The position numbers were made by a program, and so were the translations under genes. DNA of 64,000 bases, from the NCBI GenBank assembly GCA_038245785.1, contig JBBRSB010000011.1, positions 32,001-96,000 on the forward strand. The letters run 5' to 3'. Positions 39,383 through 46,726 of the stretch are shown here, piece after piece; positions within the stretch are counted from its first letter, which is position 1; each line of letters opens with the position of its first letter. A model generated the notes under the pieces. That model ran no database searches and had not been told where the DNA came from. It was given only the letters and a program-made list of their open reading frames with translations. This stretch comes from Gloeobacterales cyanobacterium. GTDB taxonomy: Bacteria > Cyanobacteriota > Cyanobacteriia > Gloeobacterales > PMM-0068.

Positions 39383-40033
39383 ATGACATCCCTTGAAACC
39401 ATCGCTACTCAGCTAGAAGATTCAGACTTTGGTCAACGCATTCAGGCGCTGATCCAATTGCGCTCGGTGGTTGCTGCTGATGCCGTTCCCTTGTTAGCAA
39501 AAGCGCTGAAAGATCCGAATACGCGGGTACGCTATTCTGCCGTCAGTCTTCTAGGCCAAAAACATACCCCAGAAACCTTGGCCCTACTGCAAGAAACCCT
39601 GGCTACTGACCCAGAACTAGATGTGCGGGCCGCAGCGGCAGCCGCCCTCGGTGATTTAGGTGACCCCTCCGCCCTCGATAACCTCGTAGAAGCCTACCGC
39701 GTAGATCAGGATGAAATGGTGCGCTTTAGTGCCGTCGCGGCCCTTGGAGAATTGGGAGATGAACGAGCGATGGACCTCTTGGCGGATGCAATCCATCAGG
39801 GCGGTTTGATTGAGACCGCAGCCGTAATGGCTCTCGGACAGATTCCTTCAGCACGCACCTATGAACTCCTGGCTCCCTTTGCTACCTCAGAAGATTGGGA
39901 AATGCGTTTTCGGGTGGCCCAAGCCTTGAAGATCTCTTCCGATGAGCGAACAGTAGCCTTGTTAGAACAATTAAAAGCAGACCCTCATCCCCAAGTTGCG
40001 CAGGAGGCAGCCTTCTCCCTAGAGAATCGCTAG
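39383..40033 (+). CDS. HEAT-repeat (PBS lyase-like) protein, NblB-like
   Basis: EZ-HEAT repeats (D.N.RVRYSAV, DVRAAAAAALG, VRFSAVAALGELGD). Confidence 0.8.
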   Translation: MTSLETIATQLEDSDFGQRIQALIQLRSVVAADAVPLLAKALKDPNTRVRYSAVSLLGQKHTPETLALLQETLATDPELDVRAAAAAALGDLGDPSALDNLVEAYRVDQDEMVRFSAVAALGELGDERAMDLLADAIHQGGLIETAAVMALGQIPSARTYELLAPFATSEDWEMRFRVAQALKISSDERTVALLEQLKADPHPQVAQEAAFSLENR

Positions 40034-40057
40034 ATTCCAGAAAGTTCTTGGGTCAGG

Positions 40058-40702
40058 TCAAGTGTCAAAACCTTGGATAGCGCCTATGAGGCTGCCCACA
40101 AATTTTTCAGGGTCATATTGGGTTTGCAGCTTTTCCATTTTTTTACTAGAGGAATGGCCGATGAGAACAGTAGGAAAAGAGTTGATACCAAAGGAGGCAC
40201 TTCGTTTGAATTCAGCTTCTATGTCTTTGATTTGAGCTGGAGCGCTAACTAACTGCAGATCTAAATCAATTTGGTTTTTCTTGGCAAGCTCTAGATAAAG
40301 ATTTTGGTCATTCAGGTCTCTCCCCTCTTGAAAATGCGCTTCGATGACGTCATGGGCAAAATCTAGGGTTTTAATCGGTTCTCTGTCGCGAACCGCCTTG
40401 ATCGCAATGGAAGGCTCTATCGAACTGGCAAGGATTTTTTTATTGCAGAGGATGTTGGCATGAAACTTCTCAGAAGGTTTACGACCCGTGACCATAAACA
40501 ACCTTTGAGAAGCGCTTTCAATATAGGCCCTCATCTCTGCATAGGGCCCAATACGTGTGCCAGCGACCATCCCCCCAAGCGCCAATTCAATATCCAAGTT
40601 TGGCAATGTTTTGCGCAGTAATCTCATAGCTGGGACAAATCCATAGCACCATCCGCACAGAGGATCAAAACCGTAAATAATTTTTGCGTCTACCATGAGC
40701 AT
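40058..40702 (-). CDS. DsbA-family thioredoxin-fold protein
   Basis: YGFDPLCGWCYGF active site; GINSFPT cis-Pro motif. Confidence 0.88.
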   Translation of the reverse strand: MLMVDAKIIYGFDPLCGWCYGFVPAMRLLRKTLPNLDIELALGGMVAGTRIGPYAEMRAYIESASQRLFMVTGRKPSEKFHANILCNKKILASSIEPSIAIKAVRDREPIKTLDFAHDVIEAHFQEGRDLNDQNLYLELAKKNQIDLDLQLVSAPAQIKDIEAEFKRSASFGINSFPTVLIGHSSSKKMEKLQTQYDPEKFVGSLIGAIQGFDT

Positions 40703-40799
40703 TAAGTTGCCTCTCCTATAGCTAGAAATGAGATTTAAAGCTCATCAACAAAAAATAATTGATGAGTGATATCTATCTTATAGCCGTACCACAATCGCT

Positions 40800-41306
40800 C
40801 TAGATTTTCCCAAGATAATCCCTCTTACCCAGCTCTACTCCGCAATGCCTGAGAATGTTGTAAGCAGTAGTGACATGAAAATAGACGTTAGGAAGCACAA
40901 AGTTTAAGAGATAGGGCAATCCCTCGAAAGTCATCGTTTCCTTACCCACGGGAAGGGTAATCGACTTTTCTTCCGAGCCATCGATTTGATCAGCGGTTAA
41001 TGTTTTTAAGTAAGCGATGACGTTCTGGAGACGGGCAATCAATTCAGGAAAAGTAGTTTCGTTATCTTCTAGTTTGGGTGCTTCCAATCCTGCTAGTCTT
41101 GCCGCTCCTCTTCTAGCAATGTCTGAAGCAATTTGGACCTGTCGTCCCAAAGGAAACATATCAGGATACAGGCGGCTGTTGAGCAGTACAACAGGATCGA
41201 CTTTTTTGGCCTCAGCATGGGCCGCACCCTTTTCCAGAATAACTGCCAGGTTATTCAGTGCATGAATGAGCGATGGGACTGAGGCTTGATACATGGAAAT
41301 CGTCAT
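40800..41306 (-). CDS. DUF1993 family protein (DinB/YfiT-like fold)
   Basis: RLYPDMFPL..QVQIASD, LPNVYFHVTTAYNILRH.GVELGKRDYLG. Confidence 0.92.
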   Translation of the reverse strand: MTISMYQASVPSLIHALNNLAVILEKGAAHAEAKKVDPVVLLNSRLYPDMFPLGRQVQIASDIARRGAARLAGLEAPKLEDNETTFPELIARLQNVIAYLKTLTADQIDGSEEKSITLPVGKETMTFEGLPYLLNFVLPNVYFHVTTAYNILRHCGVELGKRDYLGKI

Positions 41307-41427
41307 AGATATTGCTCCTGGAATCTAATGGAACCCTAATCCTTACAGAGCAGGTTGTAGCCCATCATCCCTTCAGGAGTGTCCCCTTTTTCCTTTTTCT
41401 ATGCAAAAAGTCTAATAAAAGCCGGAA

Positions 41428-41775
41428 TCAATTCAGAATATTCTCGTTGCGAAGGTGATTGCTAATGGCACCGCAAAAAGCTTCGTAGGGAGCCATGCCA
41501 GCTACTTCTCCAACTAGTTTGCCACATTTGAAGATAAAAGTAATCGGAATGCTATTGATACCGAGAAGCCCAAGGTTGTGAGCCACTTTAGGGTTCTCAT
41601 CTATATTGAGCTTGATGACTTTTATACGGTCCTTATACTTTTCAGCAAGTTGGTCAACTAAAGGAATAATATCCTGAGATTGGGCACACCAATGTGCATA
41701 GCAATTGATTAAGACTAATCCTTTGTAGCTCAATAATTCATGCCATTCATGTTCTAGCTTGGCTAATGTACTCAT
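41428..41775 (-). CDS. Thioredoxin-like protein with CxxS site
   Basis: LVLINCYAHWCAQSQ, KLNIDENP, INSIPI; GGAGGT RBS before ATG 41775. Confidence 0.82.
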   Translation of the reverse strand: MSTLAKLEHEWHELLSYKGLVLINCYAHWCAQSQDIIPLVDQLAEKYKDRIKVIKLNIDENPKVAHNLGLLGINSIPITFIFKCGKLVGEVAGMAPYEAFCGAISNHLRNENILN

Positions 41776-42415
41776 AATTTTTACCTCCGATTCTTTCAAG
41801 AGGAGAAGTCAGTGCAATTTTTCTTTCGTGATTATTTCCGCAAAAGGTACTGTAGTGGTGGGGCAAGATTAATTGATTGTCACTACGTATAATTTTGCCT
41901 TCCTGTTCTAGAACCCCGAACATGCGGGTCACCGTTACGCGTGATGCAGCAATCGTTTCAGCAATTTCTTGATGGGTCAATCGCAACATAATTAACTTTC
42001 CTGTTTCAACTTCACAGCCAAATTTATGAGCGAGCCAACCCAAGAACTCTAACAAGCGCAAGTACACGGTTTGGTGGCTAATGATATTAAGTAGGTTTTC
42101 TGTCTGTCGTACATGCCGCAGGATTGCATCCAGTTCATGCACACAAAGGTGAAGGGGCAAAGCTATAGCTGTTGTAGGCTCGAGACATTCAACTTCGTAG
42201 GGGTCAGTCTGGGATAGAGGTTTACCCACAACATCTCCTGGACCCCAAAGCCCCAGTGCCCTAGGAATTCCTTCTATACTCCATGTCAACGTTCGAACTA
42301 CGCCCCGTTCAATCTTCCAGAGAAATTTATTATCCAGTGGAAGCCTGTTTTGTCGTTCAAATGTTTTTTTTGTCAAGCTAGAAGCTAGATCAGAACTTAG
42401 ACTGGAACCATTCAT
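41747..42415 (-). CDS. Crp/Fnr-family transcriptional regulator (short cyanobacterial CysR-like type)
   Basis: LWKIERGVVRTLTW..LGLWGPGDVVG, LTHQEIAETIAASRVTVTR HTH. Confidence 0.9.
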   Translation of the reverse strand: MNGSSLSSDLASSLTKKTFERQNRLPLDNKFLWKIERGVVRTLTWSIEGIPRALGLWGPGDVVGKPLSQTDPYEVECLEPTTAIALPLHLCVHELDAILRHVRQTENLLNIISHQTVYLRLLEFLGWLAHKFGCEVETGKLIMLRLTHQEIAETIAASRVTVTRMFGVLEQEGKIIRSDNQLILPHHYSTFCGNNHERKIALTSPLERIGGKNYEYISQART

Positions 42416-42487
42416 ACGCTCAGAACTCCTAACAGATTTCGTCCAAATACATCACTGGATAGGCCAACGACATTTAATTTGGTATTC

Positions 42488-42667
42488 TCAGCTCCTTACA
42501 ATGGCTTGCTGAGTTGGCATTTCCTGACGACATGAACTGCAACGCCAATAAATCCCTGCTGAACGCATGTGCTTTAGCAAAATCGTTGAACAACAGAGGC
42601 AAGTGGGAATACGCTTTGTGGGTTTCTCAACCGTTATGGCAACAGCCTCTGGGCTGATCTTGACCAT
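42488..42667 (-). CDS. Small zinc-ribbon protein (59 aa), missing from the ORF track
   Basis: Manual translation MVKISPEAVAITVEKPTKRIPTCLCCSTILLKHMRSAGIYWRCSSCRQEMPTQQAIVRS*; pattern CxCC-x-LLxH-x-YWxCxxCxQEMP. Confidence 0.8.
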   Translation of the reverse strand: MVKISPEAVAITVEKPTKRIPTCLCCSTILLKHMRSAGIYWRCSSCRQEMPTQQAIVRS

Positions 42668-42864
42668 TATCTTAGGTTCATAAATGAAATATTCCCTTCA
42701 AAATTTAGTGGCAATTGCTCATCCCTTGGTCTAACCAATTTGACAGACGACAGGTTGATTTCGTGGATGAGTTGATTAAGTTGATTGATTATGAACTTAA
42801 GACTTAACAAAGCGGTGGAAATAAGGATTTTTTACTACCTAATTTGATAAAATAGCCTTCAAAT

Positions 42865-45177
42865 TTATTGCCATTCTCTATTCTCAAGTTCCTTCTGGGG
42901 TAACAATAAGGCCGCTTCAATTTCCTGTCGGGTCGCCGCTGTTACTGCACAATTGCTATTCAGGCAATCTAGCAGCAATTGGTTGGCATCGTAGTAGCCT
43001 TGTAGTACGCGCTCTTGCTTGGGACTAAACTGCCAAGGATGGTTAATATTCCGATAATTAATAATCGTTGTATTCAGTCGTTCAAACCAAGTGGAATAGT
43101 GCGTTTGCCACCAGTCCTGAAACCGTCCTCCGTTTTGAGCAGGATTCGGAAGTTCATCGCTGAGCTGCTGAAGAGATTTATGGAATCCATCCTCTTGCAC
43201 AATGTCCAAAATATTATCCAGAACATGGCTACAGGTATGGACATGAGCAAAGTCTTGGTTGTGCTCGATGGCACAATTCAGCAACAGGTCATCTAGCGCC
43301 GCATCGAGCAATATCCCCTGATCGAGCGCGCTGGCGAGGGCAAAGTGAAAAGCCATGTGCGGAGTCTGGGCAAGGGCGAGGTAGAAAGCTCGAGTCGTCG
43401 CAATCTTGGGTGTAGAGGGTATTGTCTGAGATTTTTGGCTAGCCCATGTCAAAAACTCTTGCAGATAAGAATCTTGGGCGACCAAGTTATCAATTTCTTG
43501 TTTCATTAACTGCACCAACTCGTCTGCACTCCGCAGCATGACCGCCGTCAACAAAAAGATTTCGCGCCATTGCGGGTCGGTGATGTGGCTAACCAGTCCT
43601 TCCAATGCTTGCTCTAAGGACTGGAGATTATGGCTAGCAACGATTTTTCGAGCGGTGAAATATTCTTGAAATGCTAGATAAGAGAAGGAGAAAATGCCCC
43701 GCGCCCGTTCTGTGAGTAGACCATGCTGCGCCTCGATCGCTCTCAAGACCGCTTCACTTTCGAGTTGCAGTTGCTCAAGATCGGTCGGGGCATCCGGCAT
43801 TTCCCGAATAGAGTCACCAATGTATTGTTCAATGAGGTGCTGCTCAAAAAAGTATTGGCCCTGCTCAAAGGTCACGGCTGCAATCTGACTCAAGAGCTTG
43901 AGCTTTTGGGGCAACAAAAACCCTCGGTAAACGTCATCTCGCTCAACCCCTCTGGCCTCGTCCCATTTACCCAGCAGCAAATCTAGCCCTTGTTTATAGA
44001 ACTCCGACCGCTTGGTCGGAAATTTTTCCTGTGTGTGGAAGACCCAACAGGCGAGATGTAGAAATAGTGGGGTAATGGCGAGTCGGCGAAATTGCCAGTT
44101 TTCCAATAGGTTCAGCTTGTGAATAAATTGAGCAGACTGCGCCTGTCCATTTTTAGCGTTCGTTTTGGTGAATGCTACAAACCATTTCTGGGCGAAGGCG
44201 ATGATTTGTGCTGAGGTGAATGGGGCAATCTCAACATCAGTAAAGCCCCTCAGCTGAAGCTTTTGAGCCGCTGTGCGACAGGTCGTTACAAATAAGTTCT
44301 TGTGATATTTGTCCGCAAATTTGCGAACTTCTCTCAAGACCGCAATACTCTCTTGGTTCAGCACTTCATCCATGCCGTCGAGCAATAGCAAGACTCTGCC
44401 TGCTTGAAGCAAGGTTTCGATCACAGACAGATCTGAAATTCCAGAAAGGAGAAACTCTTGATGGATGTACTCTAATAAACTGCACTCTGGGTGGCTTCTA
44501 GTCTCTTCCGCAAAATTCTTCAAGGAGATGAAGATAGGCACCCGATTGGCGGCAAACGCACCGTGGTTGCACTGAATGGCAAGGTGTTGTAAAAAGGTGG
44601 TTTTGCCGCTCCCCGGCTTGCCCAGTACCCTAAGTTTGGAATACATCTCAACAGCTTGCATGCCCGATATTTGTGGCTGGGAAATCTCCCCTAGGCCAAC
44701 GCGATCGAAGTCTTCTGCACTCAAGTTTTGGAGATAAGTGAGCTCGAACCACTCTTTGCTGGCTATTTTCTCCAAAACATTGACATCAATGTAGATGTCC
44801 TCAATCCCCACAGGATGGCTGACATCCAAAAGCTGCAAAATGCCGCATTGGTCTTGAATTTTCTCCTGGCGTTGCAAACGAACTTTTTGCACCAAGCTAT
44901 CAATAGCCAAAACGTTCTCGTGGGCAAATTCTCCAGGATCAGAAGACTCTGCAGGCGGATCGATCGCAATCTCCCGCCAATTCAGCTCCAAGACAAAGCA
45001 AATTTCCTGAAAGACATGGCGTTCGACTGGACGACCCGTGAAAAATCTCCAAATGGGTTGGCGCGTTTTTAAGTTGATTTCCCCTGCCAGATTTTCCTGA
45101 GTCCATCCCTTGAGGGCAAATGCTTGTTTCGCCTGCTGAATTCCAGGAAGTGAGGCCTGGAGCGATCTTTTGACCAT
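42865..45177 (-). CDS. NACHT NTPase (STAND) with N-terminal HTH and C-terminal helical domain
   Basis: GWTQENLA HTH, Walker A GKPGSGKTT, Walker B LLLLDGMDE, VTTCR, TPLFL, FSFSYLAFQEYFTA. Confidence 0.93.
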   Translation of the reverse strand: MVKRSLQASLPGIQQAKQAFALKGWTQENLAGEINLKTRQPIWRFFTGRPVERHVFQEICFVLELNWREIAIDPPAESSDPGEFAHENVLAIDSLVQKVRLQRQEKIQDQCGILQLLDVSHPVGIEDIYIDVNVLEKIASKEWFELTYLQNLSAEDFDRVGLGEISQPQISGMQAVEMYSKLRVLGKPGSGKTTFLQHLAIQCNHGAFAANRVPIFISLKNFAEETRSHPECSLLEYIHQEFLLSGISDLSVIETLLQAGRVLLLLDGMDEVLNQESIAVLREVRKFADKYHKNLFVTTCRTAAQKLQLRGFTDVEIAPFTSAQIIAFAQKWFVAFTKTNAKNGQAQSAQFIHKLNLLENWQFRRLAITPLFLHLACWVFHTQEKFPTKRSEFYKQGLDLLLGKWDEARGVERDDVYRGFLLPQKLKLLSQIAAVTFEQGQYFFEQHLIEQYIGDSIREMPDAPTDLEQLQLESEAVLRAIEAQHGLLTERARGIFSFSYLAFQEYFTARKIVASHNLQSLEQALEGLVSHITDPQWREIFLLTAVMLRSADELVQLMKQEIDNLVAQDSYLQEFLTWASQKSQTIPSTPKIATTRAFYLALAQTPHMAFHFALASALDQGILLDAALDDLLLNCAIEHNQDFAHVHTCSHVLDNILDIVQEDGFHKSLQQLSDELPNPAQNGGRFQDWWQTHYSTWFERLNTTIINYRNINHPWQFSPKQERVLQGYYDANQLLLDCLNSNCAVTAATRQEIEAALLLPQKELENREWQ

Positions 45178-45680
45178 GAAAAGGAATTCCTAGTCTTAAA
45201 GACGGGAGGAGGCTGATATCTTAGATCATAAACTTTACAGAAGGGTGAAAACTGCTGCTTAGCTGAACTTATACAAAAGCTTAAGGCCGATTTGAAATGC
45301 AACAATCTCAAGATGTTTGCACGCTGAAAATTGCCGATGAAGCTTGAGGAGCGCATTCCATGAAAGCCTCAGGAGCCTTGAACTTTAAGCATCCACATAT
45401 TGTGAGTGACGCTAAGCAGTGAGTGAAATGATAAAATGTTAAATTTTGTAACGAACTCAAACGCGACAAACTAAATGTATATCTAAATAACCTCCGCTTT
45501 GCAAAAGTATAAGTTTGCTGGCTCTGACTAAGAAGTAAAAACGCGCAGCCGGGATAAAAAAGTTGGGATTGGTCACAAATGTTGCCTTGCTATTTAGTAA
45601 AGCCGCAGATATGGGTATTCTGAGCCAAGAGCGAATCATCCCAACCCTTTTAGAAGATGCGCCCCCAAGAGGAGAAGAAT

Positions 45681-46376
45681 ATGCGTCCCGTAGCTCTGGC
45701 TTGCGCCCTAGCAGCTTTAACATCCTTACTTCCGGTTTATGCTCAGAGCATACCGCTACAGAAGGAAAGCGTAGCCAAAAACGTAAGTATTCCCGATATC
45801 GTCGTTACCAAAGATGCGGTGGATTTCCGTACGATTAATCTTTTTGAGCAAGCCCTGCCTGTGAACCAGCGGAATGTGCAGTACGGGAACGCTTACGACA
45901 TTCAAGGCGGGACCTACGACCAGGCTTGGATTTTGCCCGGACGTAAAAATTCTCTGCTGGCTATGGACTTGGGAGCCAGCAGCCCTTGGAAAAATTTCCG
46001 CTTTAACCTCGGTTCCCTCATGCCCTACAAAGGCTATGAAAAGCCTGTACAACTGGAAGTTTTAGGCGATGGCAAGCGTCTTTTTGCCTCTACTTATAAC
46101 TCTGTAGAGCCTCTTAGCCCTATTGATGTGGATGTTCAAGGAGTACGTTCTCTACAAATTCGGGTCAATGCCGCTTGTCCTCAAGCAGAGCCGGATTTTG
46201 CCGTTAGCCGTGCCCTCAGTCTCTATGTCGTAGAACCTACCCTTTCCAAAGATTCTTCGGCCCAATCCACGCCTTCTCGCATCCGCTCGATTCAGTGCGC
46301 ACCCGCTATCTTCACCGAAGCAGCTCCTCCTGTTAAGCCTCTAGCTCCAGTAAAGCCCGTTAAAGCACTCTGGTAA
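45681..46376 (+). CDS. Secreted protein with NPCBM/NEW2-like beta domain
   Basis: AGGAG RBS, signal peptide; VQLEVLGDGKRLF..IDVDVQGVRSLQIRV. Confidence 0.72.
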   Translation: MRPVALACALAALTSLLPVYAQSIPLQKESVAKNVSIPDIVVTKDAVDFRTINLFEQALPVNQRNVQYGNAYDIQGGTYDQAWILPGRKNSLLAMDLGASSPWKNFRFNLGSLMPYKGYEKPVQLEVLGDGKRLFASTYNSVEPLSPIDVDVQGVRSLQIRVNAACPQAEPDFAVSRALSLYVVEPTLSKDSSAQSTPSRIRSIQCAPAIFTEAAPPVKPLAPVKPVKALW

Positions 46377-46380
46377 CCCC

Positions 46381-46726
46381 ACCCCTCAGTCCCTTTGGGA
46401 CAGCTCCCCCAAAAGGGGAGCCTCTTCTGGGAGAAGAAGGATTGATTGGATTTGAGTACGGACCCCGCCAAGCGATAGGTCACTTCATTGTTGATGAAAC
46501 GGACTACGCGCAGGACCGAACTTTTTAGGGCAAGTGCTACAAAAATTCATACCAGAATTTATTTCGCAGGGAGTACAACTGCTACGCATCATGCGTACTT
46601 TCGGAATGAGCTTATTCATGTAGTGTTCTCATATCTTCTAAGTTCTAATCCTTCACCCGCACCTTTCTCTTCTCAAAAGGTCCAGGCTCCCCTTTGAGGG
46701 GAGCTGTCCCGTAGGGACTGAGGGGT
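46381..46726. mobile_element. 346-bp element bounded by 43-bp inverted REP-like repeats and carrying a decayed DUF559-like endonuclease gene
   Basis: 46381-46423 vs the reverse complement of 46684-46726 match at 39/43; internal minus-strand fragments LIPKVRMMRS..TPCE / KFWYEFL / LRVVRFINNEV. Confidence 0.75.

Follow-up and report, generated by a model that had tools for sequence, protein, structure and literature searches.

In bacteria, NACHT proteins are known above all as immune receptors, and many of those found in cyanobacteria have no assigned function. The only one that we found characterised as a transcription factor is XssQ (slr5058, on plasmid pSYSM of Synechocystis PCC 6803), which was shown to be a helix-turn-helix (HTH)-STAND activator of transcription with AAGTTnnAC as its binding site, working downstream of the receiver protein XssR (Maeda et al., PMC8205485). 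XssQ and XssR are further reported to suffice in a heterologous host (Ohdate et al., bioRxiv 10.64898/2025.12.18.694786). Four XssQ homologues of Anabaena PCC 7120 (alr1232, alr2242, alr3789 and all4929), by description members of the same broad HTH-NACHT family, are presented as uncharacterised and near two-component genes, and the passages of these papers cited here assign them no motif or regulon (PMC12267927, PMC4192349). Synechococcus elongatus PCC 7942 reportedly has no homologue of xssQ. We analysed a NACHT gene in a 64,000-nucleotide stretch of a Gloeobacterales cyanobacterium, referred to as the window (assembly GCA_038245785.1, contig JBBRSB010000011.1, positions 32,001 to 96,000). 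An initial annotation had joined this gene with five co-oriented neighbours into a candidate thiol/redox-coupled STAND system. Our results point to a different reading, to which we give a probability of about 0.6: the NACHT protein would be a STAND activator that runs a mobile general-stress regulon, with the adjacent Zn-ribbon gene, and perhaps the Crp and thioredoxin genes behind it, as local targets.

The NACHT gene (42865-45177, minus strand) encodes 770 residues arranged as HTH (XRE/Cro type)-NACHT-helical region-NCH2, as judged from Pfam, homology to XssQ and a phylogenetic tree. Pfam placed NACHT at residues 184-333 (63.7 bits against a cut-off of 26.7) and NCH2 at 665-760. Walker A (GKPGSGKTT) and Walker B (LLLLDGMDEV) are intact and carry the P-loop and the D[GAS]hDE signature of NACHT-class STAND NTPases, the latter being given for bacterial NACHTs by Kibby et al. 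(bioRxiv 10.1101/2022.07.19.500537). The N-terminal HTH of the window protein had no Pfam match. A profile of 51 family N-termini matched HipB (E = 3e-4), PezA and C.BclI, and weakly the 434 repressor, and HTH_3 was matched by 14 of the 51 members. A structure model of the HTH (predicted local distance difference test score, pLDDT, 92) recovered XRE/Cro folds at a probability of about 1.0, with E-values of 0.01 or above. By profile and model, the N-terminal 70 residues are an XRE/Cro-type HTH. The full-length AlphaFold model was poor (pLDDT 54.5) and was left unused.

XssQ aligned with the window NACHT over residues 1-766 at 36% identity (E = 5e-154). The two share the HTH-NACHT-helical-NCH2 order and a similar HTH, and the family often lies beside receiver-only proteins and is often plasmid-borne. 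As the homologue set we took the best 80 of 201 related loci (L001-L080, 64-76% identity), to which counts out of 80 loci below refer (in our labels, G is a genome, with G000 the host, C a contig, L a locus and g a genus). In a quick maximum-likelihood tree of 67 of 129 sequences, those shorter than 650 aa or more than 86% identical having been removed, the window NACHT fell into a clade of 45 (Shimodaira-Hasegawa-like approximate likelihood-ratio test 100, stem 0.49) and XssQ into a separate clade of six (100), with long branches flagged around XssQ. Even between distant genera, members of the window's clade stay at 64-76% identity and vary little in length, and their recognition helix KTRQPIWRFF is near-invariant; XssQ differs in this helix (STRNSVWKFL) and in Walker B, where it has NAFDE and the window protein the canonical DGMDE. 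By these comparisons the window NACHT is an XssQ-family homologue from a separate, uncharacterised and highly conserved clade, which occurs in 39 of the 201 genomes of oxygenic cyanobacteria that were sampled, or roughly one in five, and it is very probably a transcription factor. The initial annotation was right to place an HTH at the N-terminus and to favour a transcriptional switch over a classic abortive-infection NOD-like receptor (NLR); it did not recognise XssQ as a characterised homologue and overlooked the promoter motif described next. Family and mode of action are already known from XssQ, and for the clade's predicted motif and stress regulon the open-access literature yielded no earlier description. 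Two further observations concern family members: the host carries a second HTH-NACHT-NCH2 paralogue (C26:30743-33226, L090; 827 aa, 37-41% identity) of a distant clade, with no motif nearby, and locus L101 (G089:C9:36000-55999) holds three tandem HTH-NACHT paralogues (59, 53 and 51%), a local expansion within the clade.

Inspection of upstream regions in the 80 loci yielded a regular expression with 62 matches. We built a position weight matrix (PWM) from L001-L080 only, that is, from other genomes, leaving out of its seed three fixed matches on the reverse strand as off-pattern, and a longer PWM of 70 bp; the extended consensus was built from 104 sites. The motif is an oriented, non-coding element of about 60 bp with the consensus TTTGTATCGTAnTCAATCAAtTCAttCAnnAAATCAAACAnnnnnnnGTCAtAGT, in which TCAA-containing units recur at a spacing of about 9 nt and are followed by a terminal GTCAtAGT. 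This last part could be an extended -10 element, and a transcription start is predicted about 7 nt beyond it. In the 64 kb of the window the PWM had a single match (18.0 bits), 121 nt before the ATG of the Zn-ribbon gene. This predicted operator/promoter lies at 42737-42800 on the minus strand, with its core at 42788-42751 and the putative extended -10 at 42745-42737; it matches the 27-nt pattern exactly and has an extra 9-nt unit. With the 70-bp PWM it scored 29.5 bits, against 12.1 for the next-lower match in the host genome. Three further intergenic host sites were stronger, with scores of 46, 42 and 28 bits. These three precede a sucrose synthase-GH65 pair on C3, an alpha/beta-hydrolase cluster on C22 and a 228-aa gene-oleate hydratase-BON group on C21. 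Two other host matches were dismissed, one inside an open reading frame (ORF) on C50 and one on C204 at 18 bits, and three shuffles gave no match of at least 16 bits.

The orientation of the motif was consistent. The 128 loci examined contain 110 distinct sites, of which 90 have an ATG-started ORF within 400 nt 3' on the motif strand, compared with seven when reversed, and five lie inside long ORFs. We rejected a reading as an RNA element, as Rfam gave no match in six motif loci and four motif sites showed no RNA fold (z from -0.6 to +0.6). A reading as a transposon end was also rejected, since the sites point towards the starts of genes and the six-gene block lacks terminal repeats. We found no description of the motif or of a stress regulon of this clade in the open-access literature; one might exist in papers under subscription or in the supplements to the XssQ study. 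The promoter motif is apparently undescribed.

The distribution of the motif across genomes follows that of the NACHT clade. We searched 401 genomes for both the NACHT protein and the motif. A genome was called clade-positive from its protein match only, which had to span 300 residues or more with an identity of 58% or above. Thirty-nine were positive, the host included (36 with full-length and three with partial or split copies). As 200 of the 362 negatives belong to other classes, the fair contrast is that of the 39 with 162 negatives of the same class; 62 of the negatives carry distant NACHT paralogues only. The exact core occurred in 19 of the 39 positive genomes and in none of the 362 negatives, hence in 0/162 of the same class, and the reversed pattern occurred in no genome. 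When two mismatches were allowed, 30 of the 39 had sites (91 sites, up to 20 in G291). All four mixed genera with motif matches showed the motif following the NACHT (positive versus negative genomes: g39, 3/3 versus 0/3; g12, 2/2 versus 0/3; g84, 1/1 versus 0/2; g61, 1/1 versus 0/1). Sites without linkage to the NACHT gene are numerous, with examples 1 Mb away in G095, 2 Mb away in G127 and among the 20 in G291. Out-of-sample genomes behaved as predicted, with four and two sites in clade-positive G420 and G414 and none in clade-negative G401, G402 and G403. Loci of distant paralogues had no motif (0/20). On this co-distribution the motif is probably the site of the NACHT protein.

The genes behind the motif point to stress functions. 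The first genes behind 100 sites included 33 pseudo-receivers, 11 CsbD-type, five allophycocyanin-like and five DUF7219 proteins, along with Dps, hemerythrin, Usp, YGGT, PRC-barrel, GGDEF and flavodoxin-like proteins. Neighbours common to the 80 NACHT loci were the Zn-ribbon, fasciclin, DUF1816, allophycocyanin-like, CsbD, desaturase/hydroxylase, PRC-barrel, NblA, carotenoid-binding and BON proteins. Sucrose synthase and pgmB adjoin the NACHT gene on a Pseudanabaena plasmid, and sucrose synthase lies behind the motif in the host; the 228-aa gene of C21 has motif-preceded look-alikes in G355 and G135. A receiver of about 170 aa is a neighbour of the NACHT gene in 41 loci, by clustering of the 80, and in this receiver family Glu replaces the phospho-acceptor Asp in 42 of 48 members. 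This commonest partner of the clade is non-phosphorylatable and itself lies behind the motif, another difference from XssQ, and the window holds no XssS/XssR pair. Complex prediction for residues 85-770 of the L022 NACHT with its pseudo-receiver scored 0.01 and carries no weight either way. Locus L106 was present as contigs in 14 RNA runs, and csbD depth was higher in two of four inspected; such contigs cannot rank genes or show starts, have no silent control, and are confounded at their ends by paralogous promoter copies. As a side observation, single-domain pseudo-receivers (L022:10789-11193 and more than 40 other loci) stand almost always directly behind the motif and are candidate feedback partners of the NACHT. 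An allophycocyanin-alpha-like gene lies behind the motif at L006:13331-13813 and at 11-12 other loci, with no beta partner seen in the clusters.

The Zn-ribbon gene of the window (42488-42667, minus strand) encodes 59 aa with CLCC...CSSC and belongs to no Pfam family. Its family, CxxC-(x)-LLRH-(x)-YWRCxxC, is represented in 124 of the 401 genomes, frequently by more than one copy. Several members among those that score best are located near clade NACHT genes. Among the five partners of the window NACHT it is the only conserved neighbour, found near the NACHT gene in 31/80 loci by tblastn and 32/80 by hidden Markov model (HMM). A search of the ESM Atlas returned generic small zinc-finger look-alikes only. 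The Zn-ribbon gene is best read as the predicted first target gene of the NACHT protein.

From the architecture, homology, motif, orientation and co-distribution read in these sequences, we infer a mechanism in which binding, activation, oligomerisation, start site and signal are modelled on XssQ, MalT, GutR and AfsR. MalT, GutR and AfsR are reported to be STAND activators gated by an inducer and ATP, with AfsR binding promoter direct repeats (PMC10936776). They serve here as a mechanistic template by analogy, and the window NACHT may work like them; it is no member of their group. MalT, GutR and AfsR have another NTPase subclass and other DNA-binding domains than an N-terminal XRE HTH on a NACHT. 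Uninduced, the protein would be an autoinhibited monomer. A stress cue, which may arrive by way of a receiver domain in the manner of XssR, would lead to nucleotide exchange for ATP and to oligomerisation. The clustered HTHs would bind the tandem TCAA units of about 9 nt, which would overlap the -35 region of a weak promoter of the extended -10 type, and RNA polymerase would be recruited there. The targets would form a general-stress, osmotic and desiccation set, with the Asp-to-Glu pseudo-receiver, CsbD, allophycocyanin-like proteins, Dps, hemerythrin, Usp, YGGT, PRC-barrel and sucrose synthase with GH65, and regulator and promoters would have spread horizontally on islands and plasmids. In the host, four promoters would be driven, those of the Zn-ribbon gene (with possible read-through into Crp and thioredoxin) and of C3, C22 and C21; DUF1993 and DsbA would be later passengers. 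An activator is likelier than a repressor by a good margin of confidence, and for the general-stress role the balance of evidence is slightly favourable.

In a bolder version, the NACHT protein would be a stand-alone master activator that moves horizontally and controls a general-stress (desiccation/osmotic) regulon in cyanobacteria, oligomerising along a tandem operator of about 9-bp repeats at up to about 20 promoters per genome and playing a part like that of SigB or EcfG; we put this forward tentatively and with some doubt. The SigB regulons of Firmicutes and the EcfG/PhyR regulons of Alphaproteobacteria share target families with the set seen here, such as CsbD, Dps, Pmp3, DUF2382, BON and GlsB/YeaQ-like proteins. 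SigB and EcfG are sigma-factor control, whereas the proposed controller is a mobile, patchy STAND NTPase. If the proposal is true, gene transfer would be the route by which cyanobacteria of soil crusts, lichens and blooms acquire a coordinated stress programme, and the system could supply an orthogonal inducible promoter. A second conserved NACHT clade gains a predicted DNA site and a target list, so that binding, signal and oligomer mechanism can be tested in cultured carriers (Nodosilinea nodulosa PCC 7104, Leptolyngbya sp. PCC 6406 and Chroococcidiopsis sp. CCNUC1).

Several results weigh against the proposed activator and its regulon. The presence of the motif in 56 of the 80 loci is a circular count, because the motif was discovered beside these NACHT genes, and as the genomes are related, Fisher p-values (1e-16) overstate the association. 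At two mismatches, 21 of the 362 clade-negative genomes also had matches (22 sites; three genomes in the reversed control); seven of the 21 were inspected, and six of these seven matches failed the 70-bp PWM (13 bits or less). A convincing orphan site of 50 bits stood in G050 (L203, C59, minus strand from 6227), in which the clade NACHT was not found, and nine of the 39 clade-positive genomes lacked a site even at two mismatches. Loci of a neighbouring clade with a near-identical recognition helix (ETRQPIWKFF) are without the motif, and XssQ's own site, AAGTTnnAC, is different from and shorter than the motif. Of the four host sites, that in the window scores lowest, and a clear pseudo-receiver orthologue was not found in the host. 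The sucrose synthase target there is itself foreign, with 66% DNA identity to congener copies compared with about 81% for orthologues, and the host sites may therefore be co-acquired promoters.

The alternative that survives best is that the motif is a real promoter element read by another factor, such as an alternative sigma factor or an unlinked regulator, while the NACHT clade merely co-travels on stress islands. The orphan site, the nine site-less genomes and the sister clade would all fit it, as would the likeness of the targets to sigma-controlled general-stress genes of other phyla. A widespread or housekeeping factor should, however, leave sites in clade-negative relatives, which is at odds with the absence of the exact core from all 162 same-class negatives, and the four within-genus contrasts follow the NACHT. 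We consider this alternative unlikely.

In a second alternative, the protein would be a bacterial NLR that acts against phages, its HTH setting off a defensive response at the level of transcription. The clade's patchy, mobile and often plasmid-borne distribution would suit such a role, locus L155 adjoins genes that we read from their ORFs as restriction-modification-like, and Kibby et al. (bioRxiv 10.1101/2022.07.19.500537) count HTHs among the effectors, and DNA-binding domains among the adaptors, of bacterial NACHTs. The window NACHT also shares with bNACHT proteins the NACHT module with D[GAS]hDE in Walker B and, by Pfam, the C-terminal NCH2 domain. It differs in that its clade has no enzymatic effector, has stress-gene neighbours and a predicted promoter motif, and is highly conserved, its 64-76% identity and near-constant length contrasting with the variable effectors described in that preprint. 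Moreover, PADLOC returned a 29-bit match to the NACHT core only and NCBIfam antiphage models scored 21-26 bits against cut-offs of 790-1000, so that all anti-phage NACHT models (bNACHT, EruA, DS-8 and PDC-S60) remained at 21-29 bits, on the NACHT core only and below cut-off. A defence function is improbable.

The six-gene system of the initial annotation, in which Zn-ribbon, Crp and CxxS thioredoxin would relay thiol, sulfur or redox state to the NACHT, has a real basis in the layout. Positions 40058-45177 hold six consecutive ORFs on the minus strand, and the Cys motifs and the overlap of Crp with thioredoxin, 29 nt when thioredoxin is counted from its ATG, are present as claimed. Intergenic gaps from NACHT to DsbA are 198, 72, overlap, 121 and 97 nt. 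A crude scan, itself at shuffle level, found no terminator-like site between the six genes, and a sigma-70 scan gave no signal above shuffle level. Co-orientation is real, but it is no evidence for one system. In the neighbourhood comparison, the linkage held for the Zn-ribbon gene and failed for the remaining four: Crp, thioredoxin, DUF1993 and DsbA were near the NACHT in none of the 80 loci, of which 56 had at least 5 kb of downstream DNA, and none of 56 further NACHT loci (L091-L106 and L127-L166) had any of them.

The Crp/Fnr-family regulator (41747-42415, minus strand, 222 aa) is of the short cyanobacterial type by Pfam HTH_Crp_2/Crp. Its best NCBIfam model was PtrA (103 bits against a cut-off of 300), and its best match among 60 relatives was 49%. 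The CxxS-type thioredoxin (41428-41775, minus strand; Pfam Thioredoxin) has 115 aa from the ATG, or 123 aa from a TTG at 41799. It is not canonical, having WCAQS instead of WCxxC and 67.5 bits with TIGR01068 against a cut-off of 96.8; most of 25 aligned members of its family are CxxS, and the N-terminal Cys is retained, a point in favour of the redox reading. The host holds three copies of the Crp-thioredoxin pair, two of them without NACHT or motif, and thioredoxin copies at 57-68% occur in the host genome only, with at most 43% in 30 relatives. No sulfate-transport ORF, of the kind that would tie a Crp to CysR-type sulfur regulation, lies beside the window Crp or its two C18 copies. Those copies are at C18:47377-48362 and C18:60982-61950 (L088 and L089), with WCAQS and WCTDC, and the first is preceded by a DUF2949 gene together with a CheB/CheR-like-PAS kinase-receiver cluster. 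By its distribution the pair is a lineage-specific module. Because of the 72-nt gap and the lack of a terminator-like site, Crp and thioredoxin may be co-transcribed locally with the Zn-ribbon gene, and read-through from the motif promoter could place them under NACHT control in this host; they are no conserved part of a system.

The last two genes are chance neighbours, as the initial annotation had suspected. The DUF1993 gene (40800-41306, minus strand, 168 aa; Pfam DUF1993) has orthologues in both congeners (80-81% aa identity), and the counterparts of their neighbours lie at C1:409856-411506 in the host; it is a native gene relocated into the block. The DsbA/FrnE-like gene (40058-40702, minus strand, 214 aa, CGWC; Pfam Thioredoxin_5/DSBA) is a singleton, with no match among 60 relatives at E of 1e-15 or below.

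Comparison with congener G402 showed how the block arose. Contig C112 of that genome joins window positions around 40026 and 45591 across about 32 nt, so that nblB is directly followed by the gene beyond the NACHT promoter, and the 5.56-kb block (40027-45590) is therefore an insertion between nblB and the gene of a 239-aa NPCBM protein. A repeat scan found no terminal repeats or clear target duplication at its ends. Both congeners (94 and 97% complete) and 11 further genomes of the order were searched for the NACHT clade, and no member was found. Metagenome contigs L199 and L200, which look like one population related to the host lineage, carry the Zn-ribbon tail, Crp, thioredoxin and nblB at the same site without DUF1993 or DsbA. 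This adjacency in another population would favour a redox unit, but in L200 an insertion sequence separates the Zn-ribbon gene from its 5' part and leaves Crp-thioredoxin intact. The relocated DUF1993, the singleton DsbA, the repeated Crp-thioredoxin pair and the layout of L199 and L200 indicate that the block was built up in steps. The six genes are thus a patchwork insertion and no conserved thiol/redox system; as a conserved system the redox coupling is largely refuted, and we regard it as highly improbable.

Least credible is a true XssQ orthologue controlling sulfated exopolysaccharide (EPS) synthesis, which the 36% full-length identity and shared architecture would allow, since the protein falls into a separate clade, XssQ targets EPS enzymes and this clade's predicted targets are general-stress genes, neither an xss-type EPS cluster nor XssR/XssS genes turned up when 54 representatives of the neighbours in the 80 loci were annotated, the block has no XssR/XssS or sulfated-EPS genes, and AAGTTnnAC is unenriched before the partners (Zn-ribbon, 1/32 versus 0.9 shuffled; receiver, 2/50 versus 1.4).

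The NACHT gene itself is likely to have its own promoter, as an element at 45218-45236 (minus strand) upstream of its start resembles one conserved in the clade. This conserved element lies 20-50 nt before clade NACHT genes, and its Gibbs motif reached 14.4 bits versus 9.2 in shuffled sequence (55 dereplicated upstream regions). The reverse-strand form of AAGTTnnAC was found before the NACHT gene in 19/83 cases versus 2.2 shuffled, mostly in related and hence non-independent Nostoc promoters. Such a reverse XssQ consensus before clade NACHT ORFs (L001-L080) could allow auto- or cross-regulation. The HLR1 (RpaB) consensus matched with one mismatch at 45435-45452 (minus strand), upstream of the NACHT gene; at three mismatches or fewer, 23 of 55 loci had an HLR1-like site versus 14.9 shuffled, a weak excess. 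A site of this kind could tie the regulator to high-light control.

Beyond the insertion, the 239-aa gene (45657-46376, plus strand) has a signal-peptide-like start and an NPCBM/NEW2 carbohydrate-binding domain, and it adjoins nblB in the congener too. It is followed at 46381-46726 by a non-coding element of 346 bp, bounded by inverted repeats of 43 nt that are 91% complementary. This element resembles a miniature inverted-repeat transposable element and has many related copies in the host genome (92 BLAST segments) and in G402.

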